This document shows, piece by piece, positions 31,259 through 64,000 of a stretch of DNA of 64,000 nucleotides (position 1 is its first letter; each line of letters starts with the position of its first letter). The position numbers and the translations under genes are program-made. The stretch spans positions 1-64,000 of IMG/VR virus record IMGVR_UViG_3300016644_000052, one strand, 5' to 3'. The notes beneath the pieces are model-generated. The model had not been told where the DNA came from. It saw only the letters and a program-made list of their open reading frames with translations, and made no database searches. Source of the DNA: a virus.

Positions 31259-31312
31259 ATGCAGACTTTCACCGGCAAGGAATACCTCAAGATCGACATT
31301 GCCAACAACTAG
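31259..31312 (+). pseudogene. orphaned original 5' end of the RNAPII large-subunit gene (17 codons, then TAG)
   Basis: MQTFTGKEYLKIDIANN* has its own GAGGAA RBS and duplicates residues 6-18 of the gene starting at 31999. Confidence 0.65.
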
Positions 31313-32052
31313 GTTTTGACAAACGAAACCGCAGCTAATAAGGGTGTCTCGATAAGGAGAACCCTTGTGAAACAATGCTCTATTTGTGCCCAAACCCTAC
31401 CCCTCACAGCTTTTGATAAGCAGGCTACCGGCAAGCACGGTAGACGAGCCGACTGCAAAGATTGCCGTAAACGGTTCAACCGAACCCCCAAAGGCTTGGT
31501 CAAATCGCTCTACTCAAACCAAGTGGCCAAAAGCAGAAAACGAGGCCACCCGGCACCTGCCTATACTGAAGCAGAATTATTCGATTGGCTTTGGTCACAG
31601 CCTCACGCTCAAGCACTTTATGATGCCTGGGTGTCTGGCGGCTACGTCTCAGACAACAAGCCTTCAGTAGACCGTCTCGATGACTATTTGCCGTACACCC
31701 TGACCAACATACGCTTGGTCACTTGGAGCACCAACAACCAGCGGCAGTATGCTGATCGTGTTGCAGGTATCAATGTTAAGGCCTGTCATGCAGTGGACCA
31801 ATACTCTCTGGACGGGCAATTCATAACAACCCACCACTCTTATAAAGCCGCCGCTCGGGCCGTAAAAGGCAACTTCGCCAACATCAGAAATGTTGCTGAA
31901 CAGCGACCGATACATCGGGCAGAAAAAAACGGCCTTATCCGCAGCTACACCCCAATGAGCGCCAGCGGTTACATCTGGCGAAAGCACGGAGAACCTTTAT
32001 GACTTTTCAATCTTTTACGGGACGGGAATATCTTAAAATTGATATTGCGAAC
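31313..32052 (+). mobile_element. homing-endonuclease cassette with a recoded target-site duplicate
   Basis: Bounded by imperfect 39-nt direct repeats (31268-31306 and 32014-32052). They differ at 12 positions, 10 of them synonymous third positions. Confidence 0.6.
31367..32002 (+). CDS. HNH/His-Me-finger homing endonuclease with a NUMOD/IENR1-like C-terminal DNA-binding repeat
   Basis: GTG at 31367 with AAGGAG 7 nt upstream. N-terminal CSIC...CKDC zinc finger, then VDRLDDYLPYTLTNIRLVTWSTNN, then YSLDGQFITTHHSYKAAARAV.GNFANIRNV. Its stop overlaps the RNAP gene start (ATGA). Confidence 0.6.
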   Translation: MKQCSICAQTLPLTAFDKQATGKHGRRADCKDCRKRFNRTPKGLVKSLYSNQVAKSRKRGHPAPAYTEAELFDWLWSQPHAQALYDAWVSGGYVSDNKPSVDRLDDYLPYTLTNIRLVTWSTNNQRQYADRVAGINVKACHAVDQYSLDGQFITTHHSYKAAARAVKGNFANIRNVAEQRPIHRAEKNGLIRSYTPMSASGYIWRKHGEPL

Positions 32053-33201
32053 CATATGGGCCTCGACAAGCTCACCTGGGATGAGCGCATCACCTGGTTC
32101 GACGCCAACGAAAATTCGTTGGAGACCTTAATTGACCAGGCTGACGAACCAGCCCTCTACTATGCTGGCGTCAAGGCCTGGCGTAAAGTCCAGGCAGGTG
32201 AGCCAACCGGCTACATGATCAGTCTCGATGCAACTTCGTCAGGCTTGCAGATCCTGGCTGCCCTGACCGGCGATGGCTCTGCTGCCGAGCTGTGCAACGT
32301 CACTGGCAAGGGCCAGCGCATGGACGCCTATACCGCGATCTACCGGGCTATGCTCGACAAGGTCGACGACTCTGCCAAGATCGACCGGGACGGCGTCAAG
32401 CGGGCGATCATGACCAGCCTCTATGGTTCTACTGCCGTGCCCAAAGACGTATTCGGCGAAGGCTATCTGCTCCAGACCTTCTATGACACCATGAAAGAAC
32501 TGGCTCCAGCTGCCTGGGAACTCAACGAAGCATTCCTGGCGCTATGGGATCCTGAGGCTCTTGAGAACTCCTGGATCCTGCCCGACAACTTCCATGTCCA
32601 CATCAAAGTCATGGACCGCGTCAAGGAAACTGTTCACTTTCTGAACCAACCCTTTGATGTCTACTATAATGTGAACACTCCGATCGAGAATGGCCGCTCC
32701 CTGGGCGCCAATATCGTTCACTCGATCGACGGCATGATCGTCCGAGAAATGACCCGGCGCTGCACCTATGATCCGGCCATGCCGGCCCAGATCCGCAAGG
32801 TTCTGGAAATCGGCTGCGGCATTCGCCAGAAAACCCATGACGATATTATGGTGATGACCCTGTGGGGTCATTACCTCAAGTCAGGATTTCTCTCGGCCCG
32901 GATCCTCGATCATCTCACTGCCGACAACTGCGGGCATGTTCATGCCCAGACCATCTACAACTTGCTTGATACCCTACCGGAAAAGCCTTTTCCGGTCATC
33001 TCGGTCCACGACTGCTTCCGCTGTCATCCCAACTACGGCAACGACCTGCGGCTGCAATACAACCTTCAGCTGACCATGCTGGCACAGAGCGATTTGCTCC
33101 AGTTCCTAATCAGCCAGCTGCTCGACAAGCCGGTCAAGATCGGCAAGCTCAATCCGCAGCTCTGGACCCAGATCCCTTACACCAATTACGCACTCTCCTA
33201 A
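31999..33201 (+). CDS. phage RNA polymerase II large subunit (N4 gp16-like; catalytic part of a T7-like RNAP)
   Basis: Motif A MISLDATSSGLQILAAL, motif B RDGVKRAIMTSLYGS and motif C VISVHDCF. Confidence 0.85.
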   Translation: MTFQSFTGREYLKIDIANHMGLDKLTWDERITWFDANENSLETLIDQADEPALYYAGVKAWRKVQAGEPTGYMISLDATSSGLQILAALTGDGSAAELCNVTGKGQRMDAYTAIYRAMLDKVDDSAKIDRDGVKRAIMTSLYGSTAVPKDVFGEGYLLQTFYDTMKELAPAAWELNEAFLALWDPEALENSWILPDNFHVHIKVMDRVKETVHFLNQPFDVYYNVNTPIENGRSLGANIVHSIDGMIVREMTRRCTYDPAMPAQIRKVLEIGCGIRQKTHDDIMVMTLWGHYLKSGFLSARILDHLTADNCGHVHAQTIYNLLDTLPEKPFPVISVHDCFRCHPNYGNDLRLQYNLQLTMLAQSDLLQFLISQLLDKPVKIGKLNPQLWTQIPYTNYALS

Positions 33202-33514: not shown

Positions 33515-33722
33515 AACCGCAATTCGTGAACTGAACGCAATCCGCCTGCCTGTGAACAACGAACTTGGCGACCAGATCGTAACGGCTTGGCTCAAGCTGC
33601 ACATGGAATGGGCGCAGGACAGCTTCGACAAGGCGACCACCCGCGAAGACAAGGACGATGCGGAACTGGACCTGATCGCTATGCGCCGGGTGCTGAAATA
33701 CGCGGGAGGCGGCGATGACTAA
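33507..33722 (+). CDS. small hypothetical protein
   Basis: Starts at an ATGACTGA junction that overlaps the upstream stop by 8 nt. Confidence 0.45.
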   Translation: MTETAIRELNAIRLPVNNELGDQIVTAWLKLHMEWAQDSFDKATTREDKDDAELDLIAMRRVLKYAGGGDD

Positions 33723-33894
33723 GCGCAAGCCATACCCCGCATGGATATGCTTTGACTGCGGCGACAAGTGGGGGCGCAGGGAATGCGGCATTGCAACGTG
33801 GCACACGGACACTTGCTGCATCTGCGGTGAGCGTCGAGCTGTGACAGAACCCCGCGACTACGGCCACCTCAAGGAGGGATGGGAGAAGGCATGA
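33715..33894 (+). CDS. small Cys-rich zinc-binding protein (59 aa)
   Basis: CFDC...CCIC motifs. Overlapping start and stop. My own translation. Confidence 0.45.
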   Translation: MTKRKPYPAWICFDCGDKWGRRECGIATWHTDTCCICGERRAVTEPRDYGHLKEGWEKA

Positions 33895-33983
33895 CTGATT
33901 GCAACATCAGCACCCGACCAATCGCTCATCCTTGCAAATTGGGAGCGGCGCTCCGGATATTTGGGAGTGAAGGCCATGACTGA
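33891..33983 (+). CDS. very small ORF (30 aa)
   Basis: ATGA overlap upstream and an ATGACTGA junction downstream. Weak on its own. Confidence 0.25.
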   Translation: MTDCNISTRPIAHPCKLGAALRIFGSEGHD

Positions 33984-34212
33984 CCTTGTGAAGCTGCTAC
34001 GCGACGAGGACAGCTATTACCGCCTTCAAGAGAAGCATTGGTGCGTCGATCACGAAGAACTGGAGCGACAGCGCCTCGCCGCTGCTGACCGCATTGAAGA
34101 ACTGGAAGCCGCGCTAAAGCGGATTGCTGACTTCGGCACTAACAATCCGGGGCATGGTCGATCCTGTGCCGTAATCGCCCTTCGCGCATTGGTAGGAGAT
34201 GAACGTGACTGA
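33976..34212 (+). CDS. small hypothetical protein
   Basis: ATG at 33976 in track ORF 33961-34212. Confidence 0.45.
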   Translation: MTDLVKLLRDEDSYYRLQEKHWCVDHEELERQRLAAADRIEELEAALKRIADFGTNNPGHGRSCAVIALRALVGDERD

Positions 34213-34432
34213 CATTCGCATTGAATGGCTGACCGCCAGCAGCGACTGCGACCAAGCCGGTTGCAGCGGCGGCTACTCCGAAGGCGCACGGGTCTGGTTC
34301 GACGGCGAACTGGCGCTCGACCTTCCGCCAGAGCCATCCTGCTACGGCTCGACCTTCTACGATCAAGAGGCAGTGTTTGGCCTGATCCTAGCCAAGCTGG
34401 GGCATAACCTTGTGGAGACTAGCTATGACTGA
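34199..34432 (+). CDS. small hypothetical protein
   Basis: 77-aa track ORF. Confidence 0.45.
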   Translation: MNVTDIRIEWLTASSDCDQAGCSGGYSEGARVWFDGELALDLPPEPSCYGSTFYDQEAVFGLILAKLGHNLVETSYD

Positions 34433-34826
34433 CATTAAACAAGTTAGCGATTGGGCGCTATCCATCGCAGCGGAGGCCGCAGGGTCTAAGCTGCACCATT
34501 ACGAGCGAATGTCGGACGATAACCGACTGGCGCAGTCTATTGAGGCCCATGCCCGCGCCATAGAACAGCACGAAGCCTACAAGCGCGAGGTTAGCGATGC
34601 GGTGGAGGGTTACACCAGTATGGTTGGCCTCGACCCCAAGCGCTACTTTGCCCGCTTCATCATCGCCAAGCCCGACCCGCTGGTTGAGGTGATTAGCAGC
34701 GCCCTGCGCGAAGGCTCTCCATTCGATGAAGACCTAAGCCACGACTACACCGCAGAGGCAAAAGTAATTGCTGCGGCCATTCGAGCTAGTGGCCTTGAGG
34801 TTCGCAAGATCGGGGAGGGGGAGTGA
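34425..34826 (+). CDS. hypothetical protein
   Basis: ATG at 34425 at an ATGACTGA junction; track ORF 34410-34826. Confidence 0.5.
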   Translation: MTDIKQVSDWALSIAAEAAGSKLHHYERMSDDNRLAQSIEAHARAIEQHEAYKREVSDAVEGYTSMVGLDPKRYFARFIIAKPDPLVEVISSALREGSPFDEDLSHDYTAEAKVIAAAIRASGLEVRKIGEGE

Positions 34827-35170
34827 TGAGCGCGCCTTATCTTACCTCGGTGCGCTGGCACTGCCTGCAAGCGTTCAAGCGCCATCCTGCTTTGATGCGC
34901 CGCCCATTCCTCGCAAAGGAACTGAGGCTTCCGGCTCGTTAGAATGATGCCATTCTGCGCCCCGCCACCGGGCCGGCGCTGGCCGGTCTGGAAAAGGCTG
35001 GCTGGGTTGAGCGCACGGTATGGGGTGAACCCGGAACTGGTATGCCGTTTCGCACTGGCGGGCCGATCAGCGCATGGCAGGTGACAGACGCAGGACGGGA
35101 AGCAATTGCAGCCTGTCCAGACACATTCCCCGGCGAGCCGGTATATGGCGAAAGGACCACGCATGACTGA
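34826..35170 (+). pseudogene. winged-helix (MarR-like) DNA-binding gene interrupted by an in-frame TAG at 34940-34942
   Basis: My own translation gives MSAPYLTSVRWHCLQAFKRHPALMRRPFLAKELRLPAR*NDAILRPATGPALAGLEKAGWVERTV.... The two halves are in the same frame, and the distal half has no plausible start of its own. Confidence 0.5.
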
Positions 35171-35393
35171 CGAAGCAAAGGCGCTGGTGGAAGCGTTGAA
35201 ACGATACGCGCTGACCTACAACCAACGGTGGAAACTGGTTGGATTAGTTGAAACCCAAGCCCGCGAAATCGAGCGGCTGCGGGATACTCCGAACCGCATT
35301 TGGGCAGAGGCCCGCGACAGCGAATGGGATGAGGGGTTTAACTACGCCGTAAAACTGTTCCGCGCAGCACTCGCAGGAGACAGCCATGAGTGA
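35163..35393 (+). CDS. small hypothetical protein
   Basis: ATG at an ATGACTGA junction. The protein ends in AGDSHE. Confidence 0.45.
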   Translation: MTDEAKALVEALKRYALTYNQRWKLVGLVETQAREIERLRDTPNRIWAEARDSEWDEGFNYAVKLFRAALAGDSHE

Positions 35394-35742: not shown

Positions 35743-36048
35743 ATGACCAGTGAACTACGCCCTGCGGTGGAAGTGGCAGAGGATTGTTGGGGAGCAGCGG
35801 AGTTTTGCAACATAGCAGAAGCCGCTGCCGTGATCGAAGCCGACCGTGAAGCAGTCCGCGCCGAGCAAGCTGCGGAGATTGAGCGCCTGACCCTGACCGT
35901 CAGAAAGTTGCAGGGCCACCAAGCTGCGCTGGAAAGCTATCTGCGCGAAATACGTGACAAGCCAGTGGCGCGGTCAAGCGACGCATGGAAGCGGCATTGT
36001 CTGAAACTACAAGCAATTGCCGCCGAAGCACTAGGAGATGTTGCATGA
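35743..36048 (+). CDS. small hypothetical protein
   Basis: Preceded by GGAGTGACAGCC. Begins MTSELR. Confidence 0.45.
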   Translation: MTSELRPAVEVAEDCWGAAEFCNIAEAAAVIEADREAVRAEQAAEIERLTLTVRKLQGHQAALESYLREIRDKPVARSSDAWKRHCLKLQAIAAEALGDVA

Positions 36049-36305
36049 AAAACAACGACTGGCATGAAGCCTATTTCGATCTGGTCAACAAGGTTGAGTG
36101 TGAATGTGTTCAACAGGGCGACTTGGTTTCAATCTGGGATCAGTTCAAAGCAATGTCTGCCGAAATCGCCAAGTTCAAGGCGCTGGCTGAGACGCTGGCG
36201 GGGGCTTTGGAAGCTGGAACTAGGTTTATGTCACCCAGTGCAACCGTATGGCATCGTGAAGCCGCCAAAGCCCTGCGCGAATACAAGGAAGCTACCAATG
36301 TTTGA
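36045..36305 (+). CDS. small hypothetical protein
   Basis: ATGA overlap with the upstream stop. Confidence 0.45.
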
Positions 36306-36495
36306 CAATTTCCAGTGGCCGCTAGGCACCCGCGTAACCAAGACCAAAGGCAGTCAATGGACCGGCAAGGTCGTTGGCTTTTATTCCACTAGCCTGACCG
36401 CTGAAGGCTATGCCGTAGAGAGCGAAACCGAGCGTGGCTCAGTGCAGATCTACCCAGTAGCAGCCCTTAAGGAGCTGGACGATGCAAACCTATGA
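36298..36495 (+). CDS. dfrB: type II (R67/DfrB-like) dihydrofolate reductase
   Basis: The 65-aa product is [65 protein letters not shown]. It aligns over about 55 residues with R67 DHFR as I remember it (..[49 protein letters not shown]..), including the SVQIY active-site strand. Confidence 0.75.
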
Positions 36496-36712
36496 TCCAG
36501 CTCTGCTTCAGCAAAGCCTTCACAACGCTCAGGCTGATGTCACCGCTGCCTGTGAACGGATCCTTCAGCTTGAAAGCTGCCTAGATGACTTCATGAACTG
36601 GGCAGGAGCATTGGCCCTTACCGGCATTCCTACTCCGGAATCCTGGACCTTGCTTAACAAGGTCATGACCAATGCCACGCTGCTACTCACACCGTCCCGA
36701 CAAACTCCTTAA
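36482..36712 (+). CDS. small hypothetical protein
   Basis: 76-aa track ORF. Confidence 0.45.
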
Positions 36713-36866: not shown

Positions 36867-36895
36867 GGCTCCTTGGCTCACCAAGGGGCCTTTTT
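36867..36895 (+). terminator. rho-independent terminator
   Basis: GGCTCCTTGG-CTCA-CCAAGGGGCC followed by TTTTT. Confidence 0.7.
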
Positions 36896-36917
36896 CATAT
36901 CCACCACAGGACCTGCT

Positions 36918-37145
36918 ATGCCACTCTCGGAAGTATTCCGGGCCAACTTGCGTGCGGCTATCAAGGCACACCCGTTGCCGACCAAGGCTATCAGCCACAA
37001 GGCCGGCTACAACTACGCCTACGTGCGCAAAGTCATGTCCGGCTCCAAAACCAATCCCACCCTGCAATTCGTCGAAGCCCTGGCTCAAGTCTTGGGCGTC
37101 ACTGCGACAGACTTGCTGACCAGCAATGGATCCAATCATGCCTGA
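36918..37145 (+). CDS. XRE/Cro-CI family helix-turn-helix regulator
   Basis: ATG at 36918. LRAAIKAHPLPTKAISHKAGYNYAYVRKVMSGSKTNPTLQFVEALAQVLGVTATDLL fits the HTH_3 pattern. Confidence 0.6.
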   Translation: MPLSEVFRANLRAAIKAHPLPTKAISHKAGYNYAYVRKVMSGSKTNPTLQFVEALAQVLGVTATDLLTSNGSNHA

Positions 37146-37359
37146 CTATGTCATTCTCTCAATCGATAACTGCGCCTTCTGCGACAAAGCCAAGGCTGCT
37201 CTCAATAAGCACGGCATTTCCTATGCCGAGATCAACTGCGCCGATGAGCCAGAGGTCGCCATGCTGCTTGGCAAAGTAGGCCGCACCACGTTTCCCTTGG
37301 TTCTCCGCGTCGTCGGTGGCTTCACCGAACTCGACGCTCAGCTCCAGCAAGCCGGATAG
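37138..37359 (+). CDS. glutaredoxin/NrdH-like redoxin
   Basis: CAFC active-site motif near the N-terminus, TFPLV, and a size typical of the family. The start could also be 37126. Confidence 0.7.
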   Translation: MPDYVILSIDNCAFCDKAKAALNKHGISYAEINCADEPEVAMLLGKVGRTTFPLVLRVVGGFTELDAQLQQAG

Positions 37360-40191: not shown

Positions 40192-40524
40192 ATGGAGAAA
40201 AGCACTATGAGCACTCAACCTCTTACTCGCAACAACCCCCAGAGCTGGCTCGACACCATCTGGGATGCTCTTGGCGGCTACCGCGAAGACTGCATCCCTG
40301 AATCCGAAGGCGACCCAATCTATGACGCCCTGTGGGACGACATCTGCACCGCCATGGCCTGGATCAGCGAAGAACTGGGCATCGACTCTGCTGAATCGGA
40401 ATCCATGCACAGCATTCTAGACCTGCTCAGGCGCTTGGCTCACCCGCTCAACGAAGCTGAACTCCACATTGCGCAGCAAGAAGCCAAAGATCTGATCTCT
40501 CAATTCAATGGAGATAATCCATGA
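40192..40524 (+). CDS. hypothetical acidic protein
   Basis: 110-aa track ORF. The start may instead be 40207. Confidence 0.5.
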   Translation: MEKSTMSTQPLTRNNPQSWLDTIWDALGGYREDCIPESEGDPIYDALWDDICTAMAWISEELGIDSAESESMHSILDLLRRLAHPLNEAELHIAQQEAKDLISQFNGDNP

Positions 40525-41051
40525 GCGTCGTCAACGGAGCAAACCTGTTCCAGTTGGCTCCTATTGCCAACATGCTCCCCACCAAGGAACGCAACCACGG
40601 CGTCAGCCATGGCTTGGCCGAAGCAGGTTATGACATCCGCATCAAGCAGACTGTTCGTTTTGCGCCTCAAACACCTGACTACGTTAATTGTGTTCATTGG
40701 GTAATTGAGCCGGGAGACGAACACACTCAGTGTGTACTCCCATACCGGCCAGGTCGCTTCACTCTCGCATCTGCGATTGAAGAGTTTACTATGCCAGAGA
40801 ACCTAGTCGGCATTGTTCACGACAAGTCGACTTGGGCCAGACAAGGTCTGTCAGTATTCAACACCGTAATCGAGCCAGGCTGGAAAGGTTTCCTTACCCT
40901 AGAACTGGTCTATCACGGCAATAAACCTTTAACAATTCCAGCAGGCGCCGGAATTGCCCAGGTTCTGTTCCACCGGCTCGACAGCTTCGCCTCATACACC
41001 GGCAAGTACCAAGACCAGGCTGATGAGCCTGTCGCCTCAATCTTCACTTGA
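40521..41051 (+). CDS. dcd: dCTP deaminase family protein
   Basis: GYDIRI, KSTWARQGLSVFNTVIEPGWKGFLTLELVYHG and YTGKYQDQ. Confidence 0.8.
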   Translation: MSVVNGANLFQLAPIANMLPTKERNHGVSHGLAEAGYDIRIKQTVRFAPQTPDYVNCVHWVIEPGDEHTQCVLPYRPGRFTLASAIEEFTMPENLVGIVHDKSTWARQGLSVFNTVIEPGWKGFLTLELVYHGNKPLTIPAGAGIAQVLFHRLDSFASYTGKYQDQADEPVASIFT

Positions 41052-41068: not shown

Positions 41069-41425
41069 ATGAACATTCATACCAGCTTGCCTGCCCCCTT
41101 TTCAGTCTCCCAGCTGGCTCACCGCTGGGGCTGCTCGGAAGGATTGATCCGTAAACTCATCCGAGAAGGGCGGCTGCAATGTTTTCGTCCCGGAACTCTG
41201 ATCCGGATCGCAGTCTCGGAAGTGGAACGCTACGAATGCCAAAACATGCAGACGAATATTCCGTCCAGCGATTCCGCGGCGGATTTGCCATCGTCTGGCA
41301 AGAACCAGATGGAACAGGCAATCGAGTCCGCCGTCGCCGTCAGCTTGCCTCGGAAGATCGGGCGAGCGCCGAAGCGGAAGCCCGTCAACTTTGGGAAGGA
41401 ACGGATCCTGCCGCCTGGACCGTAG
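41069..41425 (+). CDS. excisionase/AlpA-like helix-turn-helix protein
   Basis: FSVSQLAHRWGCSEGLIRKLIREGRLQCFRPGTLIRIAVSEVERY fits the family. The last 60 or so codons overlap the integrase frame, so the true C-terminus is unclear. Confidence 0.5.
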   Translation: MNIHTSLPAPFSVSQLAHRWGCSEGLIRKLIREGRLQCFRPGTLIRIAVSEVERYECQNMQTNIPSSDSAADLPSSGKNQMEQAIESAVAVSLPRKIGRAPKRKPVNFGKERILPPGP

Positions 41426-42237
41426 GCAAGATCATGCGGGCCTACATGGACACGCTGACCCACAAGCCATCATACCCCCGCCGCAAAGACGCATGGAAAG
41501 CCATGCAGATCTACTGGGAAAACGTCGATCCAGCCCTGATCGACGAACCCATGTGCCGGCAGTACCGGGAACGACGTAAAGTCAGCGATGCCACGGCCCG
41601 CTACGAGCTGCTGCAACTATCCACTGCGCTCAACTGGGCCAGAACCAATGGCCCCAAACTTTCCTACAAGCGGACCATCTGGCTCCCATCCACGCCTGAA
41701 CGCAAAGAGCGTCACCTTACGCGGGAAGAATTTCACCGTTTCTTTGCCGAAGTAAGGGCAGACCATGCCCGGCTCTATGTTATGATCGGAATCTACACCC
41801 TGGCCCGGCCAGGGGCGATTCTCGAACTGACCTGGGACCGGGTCGATTTCATGCGCCGCCTGATCGATTTCAGTCCAGCGGGACGAATCGGTACACGCAA
41901 GCGGCGCACTGTCACTCCGATCAGCGACAATCTCCTGCCTCATCTCCAGCGAGCGTTCGAAGCTCGCACTTCACAATTCGTGATCGAGCATGGCGGCGAA
42001 CCCCTCAAGAGCATCAAGAAAGCCTTCGAGGCGGCCAGCAAGAGGAGCGCTGTCCACGCAACCCCCTATACGCTGCGTCATACCGGCGCTGTTTGGGCTG
42101 CCGAAGCAGGCGTTCCCATGGCGGAACTCGCTCAATTCATGGGACATGATGACGATCGGACGACTCAAAAACACTATGCCCGCTTCAGCCCGAATTATCT
42201 GTCGGGCGTAGCCAATGCCATCGGTGCAGTGGCCTGA
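41236..42237 (+). CDS. int: tyrosine recombinase / phage integrase
   Basis: Arm-binding-like N-terminus (YSVQRFRGGFAIVW). Catalytic elements ARPGAILELTWDRVDF, HTLRHTGAVW and GHDDDRTTQKHY. Confidence 0.85.
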   Translation: MPKHADEYSVQRFRGGFAIVWQEPDGTGNRVRRRRQLASEDRASAEAEARQLWEGTDPAAWTVGKIMRAYMDTLTHKPSYPRRKDAWKAMQIYWENVDPALIDEPMCRQYRERRKVSDATARYELLQLSTALNWARTNGPKLSYKRTIWLPSTPERKERHLTREEFHRFFAEVRADHARLYVMIGIYTLARPGAILELTWDRVDFMRRLIDFSPAGRIGTRKRRTVTPISDNLLPHLQRAFEARTSQFVIEHGGEPLKSIKKAFEAASKRSAVHATPYTLRHTGAVWAAEAGVPMAELAQFMGHDDDRTTQKHYARFSPNYLSGVANAIGAVA

Positions 42238-42789: not shown

Positions 42790-43101
42790 ATGCCTATCCC
42801 AGTTGCACAACTTGTCGAACAAGCCGCAGATCTATTCAATGTTCCGACCAAGGACATTCTCTCGCCTTCTCGTCTCCAAGAGCACGTTCGTCCGCGTGGA
42901 GCCATTGCCCTCGCTGCTTTGCTCAGTGGCCGTGGCCAGGTCGACATTGCCCGTCGGCTCCAGCGCAAATGTCACAGCTCGATCCATTCGCTCATCAAGA
43001 GCACCCGTCAGCGGATCGAAGCCAATGCTGATTACCGAGCCAAGGTCGAAGCACTGATTGCAACCGCTACCGACTGGAACAGCAAATACGCCATCCAATG
43101 A
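42790..43101 (+). CDS. DnaA domain IV-like (Bac_DnaA_C) helix-turn-helix protein
   Basis: SRLQEHVRPRGAIALAALLSGRGQVDIARRLQRKCHSSIHSLIKSTRQRIE parallels E. coli DnaA [47 protein letters not shown]. Confidence 0.65.
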   Translation: MPIPVAQLVEQAADLFNVPTKDILSPSRLQEHVRPRGAIALAALLSGRGQVDIARRLQRKCHSSIHSLIKSTRQRIEANADYRAKVEALIATATDWNSKYAIQ

Positions 43102-43246
43102 CGATCCTTGTTTGGGTCTCAGTACATGTCTGAGAGCCTGGGTAACTCGCCCTTCGAAACGAGGAACGCCGGATGGTTCGGCATCGACGGGGGAGGGATC
43201 AGCTATCTCTCCCCCCAAACATAAGAAACTCAGGGGTCTTTTCGCC

Positions 43247-43789
43247 ATGACATTCATGCGAGCACTCGAAAGCGGACTGCATTATCTGTCCGACCGAACC
43301 AAGAATATCATCCGCTGCCGCCAACAGGCTCGATCGCAGAGCCTGACAAAAACCAAAGAGCCAATGGTGCAAACCGTGGCTCCAATCCCGCAGCGGGTAA
43401 CTGTCCCTATCGTCCGCAAGACGACTTCCAACCAGGCTCGAACAGCCAGCAGGCTCTATGGCCAGATGATGAACAGCGACCACCCGGTCAGTGACCGTCA
43501 GGTGGCCGCCAATGAACTCAGTTTCCTACGCAAGACCAACAATCTGAGCTGGCTGGAGCTGGGCCTGCCAATGCATACCCAGAACCACATCAAGCAAGTC
43601 CTCGCACTTGCTATCCCGGCTTCTACCAAGGCTCCTGGCCGCCAGACCGCTACGCGGTCTGAGCGGGCAAGGGCCTTGTACGAAGCCGGTAAATACTCCG
43701 AGCTTCGCCAATTCAAAAGAAAAGTGAAGATCGGATGGTATAGTCTCGGCTTCAATGACTTCGAGATTTCCACGATCACCCAGAGTTAA
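43247..43789 (+). CDS. hypothetical basic protein
   Basis: ATG at 43247 in track ORF 43058-43789. The start is uncertain. Confidence 0.4.
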   Translation: MTFMRALESGLHYLSDRTKNIIRCRQQARSQSLTKTKEPMVQTVAPIPQRVTVPIVRKTTSNQARTASRLYGQMMNSDHPVSDRQVAANELSFLRKTNNLSWLELGLPMHTQNHIKQVLALAIPASTKAPGRQTATRSERARALYEAGKYSELRQFKRKVKIGWYSLGFNDFEISTITQS

Positions 43790-56050: not shown

Positions 56051-56085
56051 AAAGCCCCCCAGGAAACTGGGGGGCTTTCTTTTAT
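56051..56085. terminator. bidirectional rho-independent terminator between convergent blocks
   Basis: AAAGCCCCCC-AGGAAACT-GGGGGGCTTT, flanked by A-runs and T-runs. Confidence 0.8.
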
Positions 56086-59000
56086 CAGTTCACCAGATTG
56101 AGCCAAGGCAAGAGCATCGGCGCCCTAAACATCTGGCCTGGACCAATCGAGTAGGGCAGTTTGCCTTCGAGGCCCAGAGCCACAGCATTGTCGACGATTG
56201 GTGAACCCACCGAGCCAAGGAAATCTGGCACCGGGATAAAGCTGGCCAGCAGCGCATGAACCGGGTTGTTCCGCAGCATCGACATGGCGATCTTGGTCGA
56301 GCGGATCTTGAAGTGGTAGAACCACATCAACCCGTTGTTTTCCAGGGCACCACGGAACCGGCCAGGCAAGCGGTCATAGTTGACGAACTCTTCGCTGATC
56401 CGGCCCAGTGCTTCTGCCTGGCTCTTTCCGCCACGGGTAGTCAGGTCGTCATAGAGCACGGCCTTGGCAAGGAAGTCGCCGTATTGCACCGCCCGCTGGA
56501 GACCAGCAAACAGGGCAGTGTCCCGGCTGATGATCGCATAGCGACCAGCAGTGCGAACTTCCTGCGGCAGCTTGTCGACCTGCTTTTCGATGTAAGCGTT
56601 GAGCTTACCCGAAGAGAGCAAGATCTCGTCGTGCGTAATGGCAACGTCGGAGATCGAGCTGAACTCGCCTGCTTCGATCAGCGGCCAGATCGACAGACGA
56701 CGGTGTCCGTCCTGGATCGACTGGATCTCGTTCTGGAGCTTGCGCCGCTTGAGCGGATCGTCTTCTACCGCGGCAAGCTCTGCCTGGGCATCGAGCAAGC
56801 GCAGCCGGGACCGGGTATAGCTATCAACCTCGGCAGTTTTCTTTTTCATGCCGCGAACGATATCCAGCATTGGCACACCGCGAGACGAAAGTTGGATTAC
56901 GTTAGCCGCCATATTGCTGACTGGAACGATTACCGACTTGATCACGATGAACAGCTTGGCTTCGATCACCAGGTTCTGAAGCAGCTTCTCGGCATTGACC
57001 AGGTAACGGTAGGCATCATTGCCGAATGCCGCAGTAGCAACATTCTTGATCCCTTCCTGGACAGGCTTGGGCAGACGGGTATTGCCCGTCCAGCTATCAC
57101 CGATCGAAGCTGAGCGGTAACCGACCACATCCTCGACCATGTCCTTGCGGACCATGAACCGGTCCCCAAACACACCGCGAATGTAGAACTTCATCTCGTC
57201 GGTCATCAGCTTCATGCTGTCTTGCAGCACCGGATCGAGTTTTGTGGTGTCGAACAGATCGACGTATTCCCGCTTCTTGTCCGGATTTTCGTTCAGATCT
57301 CGATCGTACATCGCCTTGAGATTGTCGACCAAGGTCTCGTTGACGTTCTCAGCCAAAGACTCTTCAACCTGGCGGCCCCGCCAGGCGCCAAGCATCTTGG
57401 CAAGGTGCGTGCTCTGCTCAAGCCGGGCCAACTGGACCGGATCAACGCTGCGTTCAAAAGCAACAACCTCACCGGCTGAGCTAAAGACCGGGAGCAGGGC
57501 CGAACCCTGTTCGGTCATCGGAAAATCAAGAATGTCCTTGATCACTACCGGGTCGGTAATTCTCCCGGCAGTCATGATCCCGGTGGTATAGCCCGTGTCG
57601 AGATCGACCCCGGCAGCCGTCGGGCGAATATTCTGGGCAATGCCCTGATTGTAACCAGCCCGAGCCGAGACCGGAGCATAGTAATAGCTGCGGCGGGCAT
57701 AGTTGCCGCCACCGATCAGTTCGAGCGAGGAAGGCTGATACGGCGCCACTCGGATATAACCGCGTGACACCAGGTCAGCGTAGTTCCGATCGTCTTCAAT
57801 CACCAGCGACGAAGAACCATCGGACTCCATCGGGGCATAGCCCTTGTAGTGATTGTACTTGGCACCATTGGCATCAGCTTTCAGCACTTCCTGTTTGCGG
57901 TTGTACTCAAGCTGGGCAAGCGAAAAGCCCATGCCTTTGCTTTCGGTCTGAGCCAAGGCAACCAGGGTGTCCTTGGTGTTCTGGTCCAGCTCGTTCACGG
58001 CATAAAGCGAGATCAGCTGATTGAGCGCCGAGATCATTTCTTTGCTGGCAGCAGGACGATTGCGGACCTTCTCACCAAGCAGATCAGCCACAGCCACAGC
58101 ATTACGCAGCTGGTTCTGGGCAGCTTCACGGGTCACCATGAAGTGGGCCAGTTCCTTGGACTTCTTCTGGAGCAGGTTCCAGTGCTTGGGATCCATCTGC
58201 CGGATATCGTTCTCCAGCGAGCGAATCTTGTCAGCCCGCAGCGAACTGTCTGCCAGCAGCTCGATTACCTGCGTTTGGCTCATCCGGCCAAAGGTCTTGA
58301 GCGCTGCCAGATCAGTCATGGCCATGCCCTTGAACATTGCCGTCCACTCGTGATCCTTGATCTTGCGGGTGAACTGATTGGCAATCGTGTCGGGCAAATG
58401 TTCGCGGAATTGCTGACGGACAGCCTGGACCGTCGAGCGAACCAGCTTAATCATGTCATAGACTTCCTGATTGCTCAGGGTTCGTCCGACAAAGTCACTG
58501 ACCAGACGCTTGAATGCCAGCGGTAGATCAGACTTGTTGACCAGCGACATGGCTCCGGAAGCCACAGCTTCGCCGCCTTCTTCTGTAACCATCTGGGCTG
58601 CGATCTTGACCACTTGAGCAGCAGCTTTGGCAGCCTTGCTGTTGGTCGTATCGATTACGCTCTGAGCCTTGTCAGCCGCAGCACGGGACAGGGCGCCCAT
58701 GCCGTCGACTACCCACTGGTTCAGCTGATCGATCTTGCGTCCCGTCGGGGCAGCAATCTGATCAATGATCCCTTGGCGCTTCTGCGTCACGGCAACCATG
58801 GCAGCGTTGAGCGAGTCCAGCGCATCCTTGATGTTGGTAGCCTTGGCATCCTGACCAGACATCTTGAGCGAGAGGCTTTCCATTGCTTCGTTACCGAGGT
58901 TCTGGAGCACACCGTCCAGATCCTTGGCTTTACGCCGGCTGTTCTTCGGAACTTCCATCTTGGCTAGGACATCCCGGAACCGCGCATTGGTCGTAGCCAA

Positions 59001-62000
59001 AGCCAGGAATGAAGACATCAGCGTCGAACGACCTTTGGTGTCCTTGAGCGTGAGGAACTTGCCCATCACCGCGTCATAGCGTTCCTGGGCCGCAGCTTCT
59101 TCAGCCGGATCAAGCGATTCAGGGTCAGCCATGAAGTCTGACGGAGTCAGGGTCTTCTCGACATGGGCGTAGAGTTCCTGAACGCGGGACATGACATTGC
59201 CGTCGAGCTTGATGCTGGTGGCCATCACCTGCATCATCATCTCGAAGGTGGTCTGTTCCTGGGCAGTCATCGGGAAACCGTGAGCCTGGAACATCAGCGC
59301 CATGTTGCCACCAACCGTGATCGCATCTTGGACTTCGTTGTCGGCACGCGTCTTGGCGTAAACATCGCCGCTATCCAGGAAGGCTGCAATCTTGTCGTTG
59401 AGCATCTGGTTCAGAGCAACCAGACGATCGTCCTGACCATAGGCAGCATTCTGGTAGCTGACCGTGTCACCCAGCTGGGCAGACAGGCTGGGCTGACCCT
59501 GCATCAGAATTGCAGTGTTGAAGCGCAGCTGGCTGAACATGTCGTTGCCGGGCAGAGCTACCTGCTTGCGGCCAAACACCAGCTTCTTGATGAAAGCCAC
59601 GGCCTTCTGAGCCAGGAGTGCAATGCCCTTGGCCTGGTTGGCCTTGCCCTGCTTGATAAGGGCTTCGTTGCTCAGCGACCAGGCCATGAACTCGTTGAGC
59701 GCCTTGGCTCGTGCCAGGATCGGACTGATCGTGGCGTCGTTCAATGCAGCCTGAATTGCCCGGCGTGCAGCCATGTTGGCTTCGGCCAGACCTTCTTCGA
59801 TGCTGAACGTCTTGCTGATGTCCATGAACTGGCTCATCAACGCCTCAATCCGCTGCACCGCCTCGACCTGTTCGGCGTTCTTGAGATCGCCATTCAGAGC
59901 GCCGACAACCTTCTCAAAGGTGGCAGCGTGGATCAGTTCGTGGACCAGCGTTTCAAGCGACGGCTCGTAGAGGTAGATCGTCTTGTCCGAGTAACGCACC
60001 ACGCCCTTGTCGCCACTGTTGTACGGCACATGGCTCTTGCCGTGATTGCGGGCATAAGCCTGGGTCTGGGCAGGGCTGCCCACTACTACCGTGTAACCCT
60101 TGCTGGCGAGGGAGCGCAGCACATCGGACAGCACTTCCTGCTGGCTCGTCGGGAACGCCTTCAAGATCCGGTTGAGGTTCTTGACCGCCGTAAACGACAA
60201 GACACGGGCACCACTCCTGGCATCGACCCGGCCTACCTGTTGGAGAGCCTTTTCAATTGGCTCAACCGTTTTGGCCGGAGCTTCATCGCCAAACAAGTAG
60301 CGGGTGTTAGTTTCCGCTTCCTTGGTTTGGTTCAATTCTTCGGCCAATGCTTCATTGAGAATTTCAGCCTGATCTTCGGGCGAAAGGCCAGAGAGATCAA
60401 TCTCACCTTCGTTGACGTAAGGCGACGCAACCGAGGCCATTTGATCAACACTGAACTTGAACCGGGCCATTACCCGCTGCCGGGCAGCAACCTCATCAGC
60501 AGCCCGTTTGATCTGACCCGGCATGGCTTCAAGCCGCGCCTTGATTGATGCAACGCTGATTGAATTCTCATCTTCAGCCAGACCATAAAGTGCCTTGGCC
60601 AAAGCTCGGTGCTCAGCCGTGCTGAGGTTGTCGAGCGAGATATTCTGCGCAGCTACGACAAAAGCGTCATAGACCGCCTGCATCGGATTGGACTGCCAAG
60701 CCTGGTAAGCTGCCTGGTTGGCCTTGACGCTGTCTTCCTCGATCGAGGACAGCTTCATGTGCATCCCGTCAAAGACCTTGAGCGTCCCGGTTGGGGCGCC
60801 GTCCATAGTCGCCAGGTTTTGCATCATCTGTCCGTCACCGGTGCCAATCACCAGGAACGGAATACCGGACACTCCAGAGTCAGCCGGACCATAGACTTCA
60901 GCTGCCGTGCGCAGAGACTCATCAAAAGCACGGCTCAGCTCAGGGCTGCTCTTTTCCTTGAGCTTCCCGTTCTTCATGGCTTGGGCTTCGGTAGCCTTGC
61001 TCGCTTGAGCCAAGGAAACCGCATCAATCTCAGCAGAAGTTGAGCCAGCAATGAAGAAATTCTGGTGCTCGGTTTTGACCAGCGGGTACTTTGTCAGCAG
61101 GTTCTTCAGGATCTTCTGAAGCTCGCTGCGATAAAGAAAGTCTCCGACCTTCCAGTTCGGATCCTTGCGCTTGCTGTCATAGAGCTTGGCAACTTCACGC
61201 TGGAACTCGAACTGCATAGCAATCGACTGGACCTGTGTTGCCTGTCGCAGCAGATCGGCGTTCTCCAGCATATTGCCTGCCAATGTGCTTTCAATGGCTG
61301 CTCGCAGCGGAGAAACAAAGACCTTCAACAGGTTATTCTGAAGTGCTCTGAAGTCGTCCCGGTTGAACGTCAGCTCCTGGAACGTAGTCCCACGCTTCGG
61401 CGCAAACTTGCGGCGGGTTGCTGCCAGAAATGGACCTTGCTTGCCGTTAGCCAGCTGGAACTCGATCAACTGGTTAAGCGAAGTGTGGAACTTGTTCCAC
61501 AATTGTTCGGCCCGTTCCGGATCGCCGTTGGCTTCCTTGCCGAACATGGCCATGGCATTGCTCAAGCTGGGATCTTTAGCCTGGGCTTCGCTTGCCGCGG
61601 AAAAGCGAGCATAGACCTCGTCGAGCAAGGCCTTGGCAAAGTTGTTGGCAATGCCGTTCTCACCCGAGCCATAGATCGTGATGGTGAGGGGATTCTTGGC
61701 AATTCCACGCTTTAGCTCAAGCTCGCCGTTCTTGAATTCAAGATCAGGCAGGATCAGGTCCATCAGATCCAGGACCGAAGTCAGCTGCTTACCAAACGGC
61801 CCATTCCGATTACCGTTTAGCACACTGCTCAGACCTTGCTTCAAAGCATCGGTGACAGTCTGGTACAGATCCTTACCATCAGCAGCTCGCTGCTCGTGCA
61901 TGGTCTTGGCGTTGCCAAAAAGCAGACCGCCCTTTGCCATGTTGCGGATCCATTCTGCACTGAACTGACCAGAAGTCAGAATTGCCATGGCGTTGATCGG

Positions 62001-64000
62001 GCCATTGGTGACCCCATCCGCTTCGACGTAAAGCGCAGTTCGGAAAGCTTTGCGCTGCTCGGTGCTGGCATTCTGATAGCGGGCATATTCCATCAAGGCA
62101 TGGACAGCGACAGCCGAAGGGGCACCGCCAATTTCTTGCTTGATCGCCTCGATCCACGCAGGATCGAAACCGGCAGTCTCGCTCAGACCTTCGTTGTCGA
62201 GCCAGTTGCGCATGATTTCCAGAGACTTCGGCAGCTCAGTTTCGAGCTTCTTGAAGACCTCTTCGGCAGATTCTTCGCGCGAGACACGTTCAACCTTGAT
62301 CCCTAGAGCTTGAGCCAGGGCCAGAGAGAATGCCCTGAAGTCTTTGGTTCCACGGCTCGACAGATCCAGTTCCGACCAGCTCGGCAGAATGGCTTCACGC
62401 ACTAGCTTGCTGGCCTGCGGATTGTGCCGGCCTTGCATCTGCATACGGTTCACTCGGCTAAACTCGTATTCGTAGTAGATCGGCAGCTCACCAGCTTCGA
62501 TGTCTTGCGCCTCAGCCCGGTTCCGGACATCAGCAATCAGGCTCATTAGCGAGACATAGGCAGAATGAACCGTCCGGTTCTTACCATCGAGCGACTTCAG
62601 GTGATTCTTGTTGAGCGGTTTGCCATCGGTTTGACCGACCCCAAACAAGCTGACGACACCCATCTCGCCCAGCGCTTCGTAAAAACGAACCATCTGGGAG
62701 TTAATGAAGTGCGGCGTTTGCTGCTCTGCTTCGATAGCAGCTTTCTGCTGTTCAGTCAGCGGTGCCAGCTCGTTGCGCAGCTGCGAACGGGGAACTCGCT
62801 TTGATGGTTCGCCAATAAAGCGAGTCTCTTCTGGCTCGACCAGGACTGCATCTTCGATTGCTGTAGGGTATGCGTTCAGCGCTTCCTCAGCAGGAAGCCT
62901 AAAAGGGGCATACACATCTAAGGTTTTACTATCATACTCAAGTCTGGTTCTGGTTAGGCCACCAGAACTCATCAGGCCTCGGATGATTTCTTTAGCAACA
63001 GCTTCTGGAATACCTTCGACATAACCAGCCGAAGTTTTGCTATTGGAATCCAATCCCCAAAACTTTTTGATCTCTTGAGCCAAAGACCTAGAGATTTGAG
63101 GGGCGCCAACCCCATCGCTCAAAATAGTTAGGATATCAGTTTTTAGATTACCCTTATCATCCAGATAAGAGTACTCGGTGTACTCGTCAGCCGCGACTTC
63201 AATGTTCAAGCCATCAAACTCGCTAGAGCTTACTCCGAGGATCTCGGCAGCAGCATCTTCATCGACAGCGCCAATGTGCTTGTCAGCATTCAAGATCCAC
63301 TGAAGCCCGGCCAGAATAGCGCTTTCCAGCAATTCCTGGTTGTAAGAGAACGTACCATCTTCGTTCTCTTCAACGATGTTGAGTGCTTTGCCGCGTAGCT
63401 CGCGGTTGATTGCCTTGCCTTCAGCCAAGTGCTGGGCAACGCTTTTGCCATTGTAGTCGCTGTTCAAGAACTCCAGCAGATTGGCTTCCACCGCCTGCTT
63501 GATCTCGTCAGCCTGAGCTAGGAAACGCTGATACGACTGGGCAATGTCACTGTTGTAGCGCTTCTCCAGGATCTGCGAGCCGGTGAATGCCCCCAGCTTT
63601 GCAGCACTACTCAGCGCATCCCGGATAACCGACAGCGGAGCCTCTGATCCCGTGGTCCTGGACTTGGGATTTTCCGGAAGCTTGAATGCTTTTGTGAACC
63701 AGTTGGTCAGAGCCTTGACCTTTGAGCCAAGCAGGTTCGGAAACATTCCTTCAATCCCCTTCTTGGCAGGCTGGGGCTTAGCCTGCTCTGAAGGAGTTTC
63801 TTGATCCGCGTTGGTTACCGGGGCGGTTACCGTTAACTCTGAATCTTCTACGGGATTCGCGCTATCCGGTGCATCAGATTGGTTACCGGCTACGGATCCG
63901 GTATCGTCTGCTTTACCTTCGGACTGCGCTTCCGCCTGGGTCTGATCCGTGCCTTGGTTCTGAGCTTCTGGCTTGGAAACAGGATCGGAAGGAGCATCGG
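56085..64000 (-). CDS. virion-encapsidated RNA polymerase (N4 gp50-like vRNAP), partial; the 5' end lies beyond the window
   Basis: The frame has no stop from 56085 to 64000 (I checked it upstream of the track's first Met at 63746). Motifs: T/DxxGR-like RVNRMQMQGRHNPQ, motif A YVEADGVTNGPINAMAIL, motif B RGIAKNPLTITIYGSG, motif C LKVFDGMHM. Confidence 0.9.
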   Translation of the reverse strand, partial: DAPSDPVSKPEAQNQGTDQTQAEAQSEGKADDTGSVAGNQSDAPDSANPVEDSELTVTAPVTNADQETPSEQAKPQPAKKGIEGMFPNLLGSKVKALTNWFTKAFKLPENPKSRTTGSEAPLSVIRDALSSAAKLGAFTGSQILEKRYNSDIAQSYQRFLAQADEIKQAVEANLLEFLNSDYNGKSVAQHLAEGKAINRELRGKALNIVEENEDGTFSYNQELLESAILAGLQWILNADKHIGAVDEDAAAEILGVSSSEFDGLNIEVAADEYTEYSYLDDKGNLKTDILTILSDGVGAPQISRSLAQEIKKFWGLDSNSKTSAGYVEGIPEAVAKEIIRGLMSSGGLTRTRLEYDSKTLDVYAPFRLPAEEALNAYPTAIEDAVLVEPEETRFIGEPSKRVPRSQLRNELAPLTEQQKAAIEAEQQTPHFINSQMVRFYEALGEMGVVSLFGVGQTDGKPLNKNHLKSLDGKNRTVHSAYVSLMSLIADVRNRAEAQDIEAGELPIYYEYEFSRVNRMQMQGRHNPQASKLVREAILPSWSELDLSSRGTKDFRAFSLALAQALGIKVERVSREESAEEVFKKLETELPKSLEIMRNWLDNEGLSETAGFDPAWIEAIKQEIGGAPSAVAVHALMEYARYQNASTEQRKAFRTALYVEADGVTNGPINAMAILTSGQFSAEWIRNMAKGGLLFGNAKTMHEQRAADGKDLYQTVTDALKQGLSSVLNGNRNGPFGKQLTSVLDLMDLILPDLEFKNGELELKRGIAKNPLTITIYGSGENGIANNFAKALLDEVYARFSAASEAQAKDPSLSNAMAMFGKEANGDPERAEQLWNKFHTSLNQLIEFQLANGKQGPFLAATRRKFAPKRGTTFQELTFNRDDFRALQNNLLKVFVSPLRAAIESTLAGNMLENADLLRQATQVQSIAMQFEFQREVAKLYDSKRKDPNWKVGDFLYRSELQKILKNLLTKYPLVKTEHQNFFIAGSTSAEIDAVSLAQASKATEAQAMKNGKLKEKSSPELSRAFDESLRTAAEVYGPADSGVSGIPFLVIGTGDGQMMQNLATMDGAPTGTLKVFDGMHMKLSSIEEDSVKANQAAYQAWQSNPMQAVYDAFVVAAQNISLDNLSTAEHRALAKALYGLAEDENSISVASIKARLEAMPGQIKRAADEVAARQRVMARFKFSVDQMASVASPYVNEGEIDLSGLSPEDQAEILNEALAEELNQTKEAETNTRYLFGDEAPAKTVEPIEKALQQVGRVDARSGARVLSFTAVKNLNRILKAFPTSQQEVLSDVLRSLASKGYTVVVGSPAQTQAYARNHGKSHVPYNSGDKGVVRYSDKTIYLYEPSLETLVHELIHAATFEKVVGALNGDLKNAEQVEAVQRIEALMSQFMDISKTFSIEEGLAEANMAARRAIQAALNDATISPILARAKALNEFMAWSLSNEALIKQGKANQAKGIALLAQKAVAFIKKLVFGRKQVALPGNDMFSQLRFNTAILMQGQPSLSAQLGDTVSYQNAAYGQDDRLVALNQMLNDKIAAFLDSGDVYAKTRADNEVQDAITVGGNMALMFQAHGFPMTAQEQTTFEMMMQVMATSIKLDGNVMSRVQELYAHVEKTLTPSDFMADPESLDPAEEAAAQERYDAVMGKFLTLKDTKGRSTLMSSFLALATTNARFRDVLAKMEVPKNSRRKAKDLDGVLQNLGNEAMESLSLKMSGQDAKATNIKDALDSLNAAMVAVTQKRQGIIDQIAAPTGRKIDQLNQWVVDGMGALSRAAADKAQSVIDTTNSKAAKAAAQVVKIAAQMVTEEGGEAVASGAMSLVNKSDLPLAFKRLVSDFVGRTLSNQEVYDMIKLVRSTVQAVRQQFREHLPDTIANQFTRKIKDHEWTAMFKGMAMTDLAALKTFGRMSQTQVIELLADSSLRADKIRSLENDIRQMDPKHWNLLQKKSKELAHFMVTREAAQNQLRNAVAVADLLGEKVRNRPAASKEMISALNQLISLYAVNELDQNTKDTLVALAQTESKGMGFSLAQLEYNRKQEVLKADANGAKYNHYKGYAPMESDGSSSLVIEDDRNYADLVSRGYIRVAPYQPSSLELIGGGNYARRSYYYAPVSARAGYNQGIAQNIRPTAAGVDLDTGYTTGIMTAGRITDPVVIKDILDFPMTEQGSALLPVFSSAGEVVAFERSVDPVQLARLEQSTHLAKMLGAWRGRQVEESLAENVNETLVDNLKAMYDRDLNENPDKKREYVDLFDTTKLDPVLQDSMKLMTDEMKFYIRGVFGDRFMVRKDMVEDVVGYRSASIGDSWTGNTRLPKPVQEGIKNVATAAFGNDAYRYLVNAEKLLQNLVIEAKLFIVIKSVIVPVSNMAANVIQLSSRGVPMLDIVRGMKKKTAEVDSYTRSRLRLLDAQAELAAVEDDPLKRRKLQNEIQSIQDGHRRLSIWPLIEAGEFSSISDVAITHDEILLSSGKLNAYIEKQVDKLPQEVRTAGRYAIISRDTALFAGLQRAVQYGDFLAKAVLYDDLTTRGGKSQAEALGRISEEFVNYDRLPGRFRGALENNGLMWFYHFKIRSTKIAMSMLRNNPVHALLASFIPVPDFLGSVGSPIVDNAVALGLEGKLPYSIGPGQMFRAPMLLPWLNLVN

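Follow-up and report, generated by a model that had tools for sequence, protein, structure and literature searches.

The window analysed here, positions 1–64,000 of the IMG/VR virus record IMGVR_UViG_3300016644_000052, carries on its plus strand a dfrB-like gene of 65 codons (36298–36495; ATG at 36298, TGA at 36493–36495). The encoded protein consists of an SH3-like core, preceded by just 6 residues and followed by an 8-residue tail. A Shine-Dalgarno-like AAGGAAG motif, read from the sequence (36285–36291, plus strand), lies 6 nt upstream of the ATG and within the 3′ end of the upstream gene. This upstream gene encodes 86 amino acids (36045–36305, plus strand, according to the gene calls on sibling contigs) and matches no Pfam or PHROG profile. 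Its stop and the start of dfrB overlap by 8 nt (ATGTTTGA). On the other side, a gene for a 76-residue protein (36482–36712, plus strand; from gene calls and sequence, no PHROG match) begins with an ATG 14 nt inside the 3′ end of dfrB, and the AAGGAG motif of this gene (36469–36474), 7 nt before its ATG, is encoded in the dfrB tail.

The 65-residue gene was independently called on at least five metagenome contigs. Its reading frame could be extended upstream as far as an ATG at 36064, which would yield a protein of 143 amino acids. We rejected this start, because the extension is of low quality and the 86-residue gene occupies another frame there in all sibling contigs, and because the match to the copy of an unrelated phage (contig L009) starts, at the DNA level, at 36294. 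The closest homologues of 64–65 residues begin with the matching sequence MFD(N/H)F(Q/R)WPLG.

The small genes around dfrB are tightly packed. In the gene calls of a sibling contig, consecutive genes of this block overlap by 1–14 nt, and only one 5-nt gap occurs. The initial annotation had described a translationally coupled small-gene array, of which the geometry (the 8-nt and 14-nt overlaps and the Shine-Dalgarno-like motifs) is indeed found. Judged from this geometry, dfrB is probably translationally coupled with its overlapping neighbors via a polycistronic message. A search for attC-like inverted repeats around dfrB returned just weak pairs of 14–17 nt with 80–86% complementarity. Because it has no attC and overlaps both neighbors in a phage operon, dfrB is not an integron cassette.

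The dfrB-like protein matches the Pfam family PF06442 (R67 DHFR) with 76.6 bits (E = 1.3e-21, profile positions 23–76 of 78), compared with a gathering score of 25 bits. It also matches PHROG_31682 (E = 2.7e-22) and, in a phmmer search of the PDB, the R67 DHFR chain 1vie (E = 1.7e-17). Similarity of this degree greatly exceeds chance. In the ungapped alignment of the core (W7–D61) with R67 (F24–N78), 32 of 55 residues are identical (58%), in good agreement with the ∼60% identity over ∼55 residues estimated by eye when the gene was proposed to be of the R67/DfrB type. The curated cutoff of the NCBIfam model NF000331 (trim_DfrB) is 137 bits, whereas the dfrB-like protein scores 85 bits. By these profile and alignment matches, the protein is a member of the DfrB family, though outside the named clinical alleles, and the 65-residue phage gene is a genuine, strongly conserved R67/DfrB relative.

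The residues K15, W21, S42, and S48-V49-Q50-I51-Y52 correspond to K32, W38, S59, and S65-V66-Q67-I68-Y69 of R67. The S-V-Q-I-Y strand that had been pointed out as common to both proteins is thus an exact match, S48–Y52 being equivalent to S65–Y69. The longer string of residues listed as shared is largely correct, except for three positions (T11, K24, and F28, which are D28, Q41, and W45 in R67). We aligned the window protein with 98 database homologues. Throughout these 99 sequences, K15, W21, V49, and Q50 (K32, W38, V66, and Q67 in R67) are invariant, and conservation reaches at least 90% at S48, I51, and Y52 (S65, I68, and Y69).

The window protein also departs from R67 in several respects. 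The histidine H62 is replaced by a glutamate (E45), W45 by a phenylalanine (F28), and P63 by an arginine, whereas W38 of the dimer–dimer interface is retained as W21. In R67, W38 and H62 lie at the dimer–dimer interface, and protonation of H62 leads to dissociation of the tetramer at pH 5 (PMC9835603). W45, which is located at the monomer–monomer interface, is reportedly substitutable (PMC9835603). At the position of H62, at least 90% of the environmental homologues have a glutamate, and this residue also occurs in a protein of Vibrio phage 1.030.O. Given this conservation, and because the Vibrio phage protein fits the resistance-conferring enzyme DfrB-H4 (see below), the replacement of His-62 by glutamate need not be disqualifying. 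The ∼20-residue N-terminal tail of R67, which is reportedly required for good expression of DfrB1 (PMC9835603), is absent from the window protein.

An AlphaFold2 model of the monomer, calculated on the 99-sequence alignment, has a mean pLDDT of 92.1 and comprises five strands (residues 12–15, 22–29, 37–42, 49–53, and 57–59). The best seven Foldseek matches of this model in the PDB are all R67 DHFR structures (TM score 0.81–0.97, rmsd 0.6–0.7 Å, 55–59% identity). Later matches are generic SH3-like or chromo-like domains with E values above 0.03. The window protomer is therefore predicted to assume an SH3-like, five-stranded β-barrel fold.

The gene content of the remaining window is that of an N4-like podophage of the Schitoviridae type, with a genome of ∼65.7 kb, which bears out the assignment of the gene to a phage. 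The backbone comprises a virion RNA polymerase (phrog_2206, 2322 bits), a portal, a major head protein, and a large terminase (TerL). Pfam matches add a T7-like RNA polymerase subunit (RNA_pol), an AAA ATPase with a vWA/DUF2201 partner, a helicase, PolA, and a primase, and homologues of Phage_N4_Gp1 and Phage_N4_Gp2 are present on a sibling contig. PolA shares 63% identity with its counterpart in coliphage N4, and the major capsid gene shares 73% nucleotide identity with that of Rhizobium phage RHEph16. No close cultured relative was found when 15 kb were searched against the phage collection by megablast (a single match of 46 nt), and the Rfam scan at gathering thresholds and the tRNA scan of the window returned no matches.

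Two independent assemblies of the genome measure 65,752 and 65,719 bp; hence, the window covers all but ∼1.7 kb of it. These ∼1.7 kb are accounted for by the N terminus of the virion RNA polymerase and the end of a structural gene, which run off opposite ends of the window. The polymerase gene (56085–64000, minus strand) is listed with 2553 codons. This apparent length is partly an artefact: the frame continues for 84 more codons to the end of the window without a stop, and the profile match begins at position 909 of 3406, so that the N terminus must lie outside the window. The full-length polymerase would comprise ∼3,100–3,200 amino acids. An exact look-up of its product returned no match. 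Similarly, an apparently ORF-free stretch of 1.86 kb at the start of the window arises because the ORF listing omits frames that cross the edge; positions 2–1844 of the minus strand are open and encode at least 614 residues of a virion structural protein (phrog_6126, E = 4e-41), the central part of which has a tape-measure-like match (phrog_9570).

Within this genome, dfrB is located in a block of small genes that follows the RNA polymerase II genes and precedes the AAA/vWA and replication genes. The block would correspond to the middle-class small genes of N4, a position that is consistent with co-expression of dfrB with the DNA-replication genes.

The genome also encodes a tyrosine recombinase (41069–42237, plus strand; Phage_integrase, 60.6 bits; PHROG_1, E = 2.3e-45), called as a 267-residue protein from ∼41434 and preceded by a gene for a 118-residue HTH_17 protein (excisionase/MerR-like). 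A Cro/CI-like HTH_3 gene lies at 36873–37145. The relatives of the integrase listed in the phage collection are all found in records of 10–52 kb, none of which is N4-sized. N4-like phages are regarded as strictly lytic, and an integrase is unusual in this group. The phage may therefore be a temperate or site-specifically recombining member of the N4-like phages, and its description as lytic-type in the initial annotation is not secure.

Comparison with sibling contigs revealed additional signs of recombination. Directly upstream of the gene for the large subunit of RNA polymerase II, an insert (31312–32011) contains a gene for an endonuclease VII-like protein of 228 residues that includes a Lar-like zinc ribbon (31316–32002, plus strand; PHROG_1035, E = 8e-20). 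The insert is missing from sibling contig L001, which is elsewhere 97–100% identical. The original 5′ end of the polymerase gene persists as a stop-terminated remnant (31266–31311), and a copy of it (32012–32057; 31 of 46 nt identical), whose translation is almost unchanged, now forms the start of the gene. The arrangement resembles the trace that a free-standing homing endonuclease leaves behind. A second variable region (33522–35250) represents a strain-level mosaic swap, in which ∼1.73 kb of the window face ∼0.87 kb of mostly unrelated sequence in contigs L001, L002, and L004, with flanks that are 97–100% identical. Apart from these regions, the only RII-related product is a 243-residue protein (43058–43789, plus strand), which aligns with the last, C-terminal quarter of the profile for RIIB (PHROG_2886, E = 3.5e-13). 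Phages RHEph16 and ZX86 possess large rIIA and rIIB genes; these were not detected in the genome, and their absence may partly explain its small size for an N4-like phage.

We also searched the genome for genes of thymidylate and folate metabolism. Searches by tblastn with ThyA and FolA of Escherichia coli and ThyX of Thermotoga gave best E values of 0.19–2.8. An R67 query, whose residues 21–77 are in accord with the alignment to the PDB entry, served as the positive control and recovered dfrB with E = 2.4e-19. Pfam scans of 57 plus-strand proteins did not contain Thymidylat_synt, Thy1, or DHFR_1, and the minus-strand genes were covered by tblastn only. In agreement with the earlier statement that the window lacks a thymidylate synthase gene, these searches indicate that none is present in essentially the whole ∼65.7-kb genome.

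The only other enzyme of pyrimidine metabolism that we found in the genome is a dCTP deaminase (40521–41051, plus strand; PHROG_1663, E = 2.8e-55; Pfam DCD, 5.8e-20). A glutaredoxin/NrdH-like redoxin (37126–37359, plus strand; Pfam Glutaredoxin, 2.9e-10; PHROG_22 thioredoxin domain, 1.4e-11), an accessory function of nucleotide metabolism, is encoded 0.6 kb downstream of dfrB. Both the redoxin and the deaminase may conceivably be tied to dfrB in function.

Homologues of the window protein are widespread in metagenomes. The protein collection contains 98 of them, mostly 62–75 amino acids long, with 58–98% BLASTP identity over the aligned region, and the 90% cluster of the window protein has 160 members. 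When we compared the window with contigs L009, L010, and L011 by blastn and MAFFT, dfrB proved to coincide largely with a mosaic module (36294–36473, plus strand). The module is 87% identical at the nucleotide level to the copy in the unrelated phage-like contig L009, whereas both flanks are unrelated; homology starts 4 nt before the start codon and ends ∼20 nt before the stop. The copy on L009 encodes the cluster representative P0005, with 93% protein identity, in a completely different phage-like backbone (Prim-Pol/AAA_25 primase, GapR, Lar, ArdC, and PDDEXK), where dfrB likewise overlaps its own upstream gene by 8 nt. Across a 48-codon core, comparison with the copy of the unrelated phage gives a dN of 0.028 and a dS of 0.74 (dN/dS 0.038). 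These values indicate strong purifying selection on dfrB, and the pattern of homology indicates that the gene behaves as a gene-sized mosaic module that moves between unrelated phages.

Other pieces of the small-gene array are also common to the window and L009, where their order differs (33733–33882, 34533–34689, and patches between 35163 and 36292). They show 80–91% identity over ∼150 nt, with patches of 29–53 nt at 93–100%. It seems that modules of gene size and below are often swapped between the carrier phage and L009-type phages, whose hosts are presumably shared. Three more distant homologues with 73–80% identity (on L013, L014, and L015) reside in three further, mutually unrelated phage-like contexts. 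Each of these copies abuts or overlaps a neighboring gene, and no thymidylate synthase was found within 10 kb of them.

DfrB enzymes of phages have been described before. GenBank holds 26 phage records with a DfrB homologue, among them Sinorhizobium phage phiM9, Vibrio phage 1.030.O, Pseudomonas phage PS-1, Ochrobactrum phage ZX86, and a series of 77–78-kb Rhizobium phages, of which RHEph16 was examined. Eight dfrB candidates were counted in lytic phages (PMC12466917), freshwater viral contigs carry DfrB2-like ORFs (PMC7265639), and one Pseudomonas phage homologue and one Vibrio phage homologue were tested in 2023 (PMC9835603). A catalogue from 2025 lists 386 DfrB homologues, 20 of them viral, and reports in vivo trimethoprim resistance from 114 homologues (PMC12486381). 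In the same study, the VQIY motif was exclusive to the catalytic, tetramer-forming cluster I, catalysis was linked to tetramer formation, and the great majority of cluster I proteins were predicted by AlphaFold-multimer to form tetramers (PMC12486381). Because phage DfrBs, including those of N4-like phages, are already annotated in GenBank and have partly been tested, the gene described here is a new example of a known group.

From these data, the window protein is probably a minimal type B (R67-like) DHFR that acts as an NADPH-dependent homotetramer and recycles the dihydrofolate produced by the ThyA of the host. Four of the 65-residue SH3-like protomers would assemble into a homotetramer with a single central pore. 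S48-V49-Q50-I51-Y52 would line the wall of this pore and K15 would cap it, and NADPH and dihydrofolate would be bound inside for hydride transfer. During infection, the dCTP deaminase of the phage would provide dUTP, and hence dUMP, upstream of the thymidylate synthase step of the host. Phage DNA synthesis would raise the demand for dTMP, so that host ThyA releases dihydrofolate, from which the phage reductase would regenerate tetrahydrofolate. As a by-product, the reductase should be insensitive to trimethoprim.

Host ThyA is the most likely source of the dihydrofolate, since the phage encodes a dCTP deaminase and has to depend on its host for thymidylate synthase. Viral DfrBs have been proposed to serve dTMP synthesis, and ThyA was noted in just 3 of 10 viral genomes of cluster I (PMC12486381). 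As published, the metabolic argument builds on a ThyA encoded in linkage by the phage; it is inapplicable here, because the carrier phage lacks ThyA. For the same reason, the recycling role hinges on the ThyA of the host, and its rationale would be weaker in a host that uses ThyX. A VQIY-type DfrB in a ThyA-less phage also implies that linkage to ThyA is not the whole story, and that either a role with host ThyA or a bypass of antifolates has to be considered.

With such a bypass, the enzyme would be retained mainly for growth in hosts in which trimethoprim, natural antifolates, or a host shut-down blocks FolA, rather than for raising the normal flux, and would at the same time be a mobile resistance determinant able to pass to bacteria. 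We consider this unlikely. DfrB enzymes are intrinsically insensitive to trimethoprim (PMC9835603), dfrB passes between unrelated phages as a discrete unit, and the integrase-family gene makes lysogenic conversion conceivable. However, nothing points to antifolate exposure in the source samples, the surroundings of dfrB contain no integron or attC and the gene overlaps both neighbors, and the nearest plasmid alleles are just 65–72% identical over the core. These alleles are a Pseudomonas DfrB family protein (72%), DfrB9 (67%), and DfrB2 and DfrB3 (65%), each compared over 50–52 residues. With this distance, the trim_DfrB score of 85 against 137 bits, and no cassette structure, the data do not support the suggestion, for this lineage, that a resistance determinant has its reservoir or origin here. 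For resistance surveillance, it represents a distant relative rather than a direct source of clinical alleles.

Alternatively, the protein could be a non-catalytic SH3-like module that binds, for example, nucleotides or ADP-ribose, or an oligomerization domain, and thus resemble the DfrB homologues of clusters III–V, in which R67-like tetramers and reduction of dihydrofolate are both lacking. Non-catalytic DfrB homologues occur in ThyX-carrying Streptomyces phages, and binding functions were suggested for the fold (PMC12486381); like those phages, the carrier phage has no ThyA as a partner. However, the non-catalytic clusters are devoid of VQIY and are not predicted to form tetramers, whereas the window protein retains VQIY and the equivalents of K32 and W38 and is 58–72% identical to proven DfrB enzymes, which renders this reading quite improbable. 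That the enzyme instead reduces another pterin- or flavin-like substrate, or belongs to a DNA-modification pathway rather than to dTMP synthesis, is very improbable: the R67-type pore is promiscuous (PMC9835603) and DNA methylases were noted near some phage homologues in earlier work, but cluster I enzymes are not known to use another substrate and the plus-strand genes scanned include no ThyA-like hydroxymethylase, methylase, or other base-modification gene.

With recycling of host-derived dihydrofolate as the preferred role, the locus adds a case to the published pattern in which the smallest known DHFR is carried by many tailed phages. It is a clean cluster I (VQIY) DfrB in a genome that could be shown almost in full to lack ThyA, ThyX, and FolA, and it shows the transfer of dfrB between unrelated phages, as a unit the size of the ORF, under strong purifying selection. 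In addition, a naturally tail-less variant of 65 residues with a glutamate in place of the pH-switch residue His-62 offers a minimal scaffold for tests on the N terminus and on His-62.

All five of the distinct genomic contexts sampled are phage-like, in what is a small and biased sample, and the module boundaries lie near the limits of the ORF. One could speculate from this that the bare, ∼64-residue catalytic DfrB is primarily a phage gene, which travels as a 0.2-kb module, and that phage arrays are the source from which integrons acquired clinical dfrB. We regard this broader proposal as rather doubtful. If true, the self-contained DfrB module would hop from one array of overlapping small genes to another among unrelated phages, most of them lacking a thymidylate synthase gene, and phage arrays, not bacterial chromosomes, would constitute the pool for integron capture of clinical dfrB.

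Compared with R67 DHFR (DfrB1; PDB codes 1VIE, 2RK1, and 2GQV), the window protein belongs to the same Pfam family, shares the five-stranded SH3-like fold, and is 58% identical in the core. Whereas R67 DHFR comprises 78 amino acids with a disordered N-terminal tail, the window protein has 65 and is tail-less. Clinical DfrBs are carried on integron cassettes, whereas dfrB of the window has no attC and is part of a phage operon.

Among the phage proteins, AUR82941.1 of Vibrio phage 1.030.O is 71% identical to the window protein in the core and likewise features a glutamate at position 62. It is probably identical to DfrB-H4, because it fits the description of that enzyme as the product of a Vibrio phage gene ∼2 kb from a DNA methylase; DfrB-H3 probably originates from Pseudomonas phage PS-1. 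Like the window protein, DfrB-H4 is phage-encoded and possesses VQIY, K32, and W38, whereas it is a multidomain protein of 218 amino acids and the window protein is the bare domain. DfrB-H4 conferred trimethoprim resistance at 600 μg/ml, the highest concentration tested, whereas DfrB-H3 did not confer resistance, which was ascribed to a lack of soluble expression (PMC9835603).

Two N4-like phages encode a dCTP deaminase together with a DfrB, as does the carrier phage. In Rhizobium phage RHEph16 (Schitoviridae), the DfrB (QXV74377.1) is just 50% identical to the window protein; its gene, annotated as “dihydrofolate reductase protein”, lies next to that of the virion RNA polymerase, and the phage also encodes a thymidylate synthase. 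In Ochrobactrum phage ZX86, the DfrB (XRA41377.1, annotated as “R67 dihydrofolate reductase”) is 58% identical and comprises 177 amino acids with a hydrophobic N-terminal extension. Its gene is located among small early genes upstream of RNAP1, and no thyA was found within the first 30 kb of this genome. The different genome positions and the identities of only 50–58% suggest that the N4-like phages acquired their DfrBs independently.

A functional analogue is found in phage T4, where frd, a DHFR of the FolA type, together with td backs the supply of dTMP during DNA replication. The T4 enzyme is a monomer of ∼190 amino acids with an unrelated, FolA-type fold, and T4 encodes its own thymidylate synthase, whereas the 65-residue reductase of the N4-like phage would rely on that of its host.
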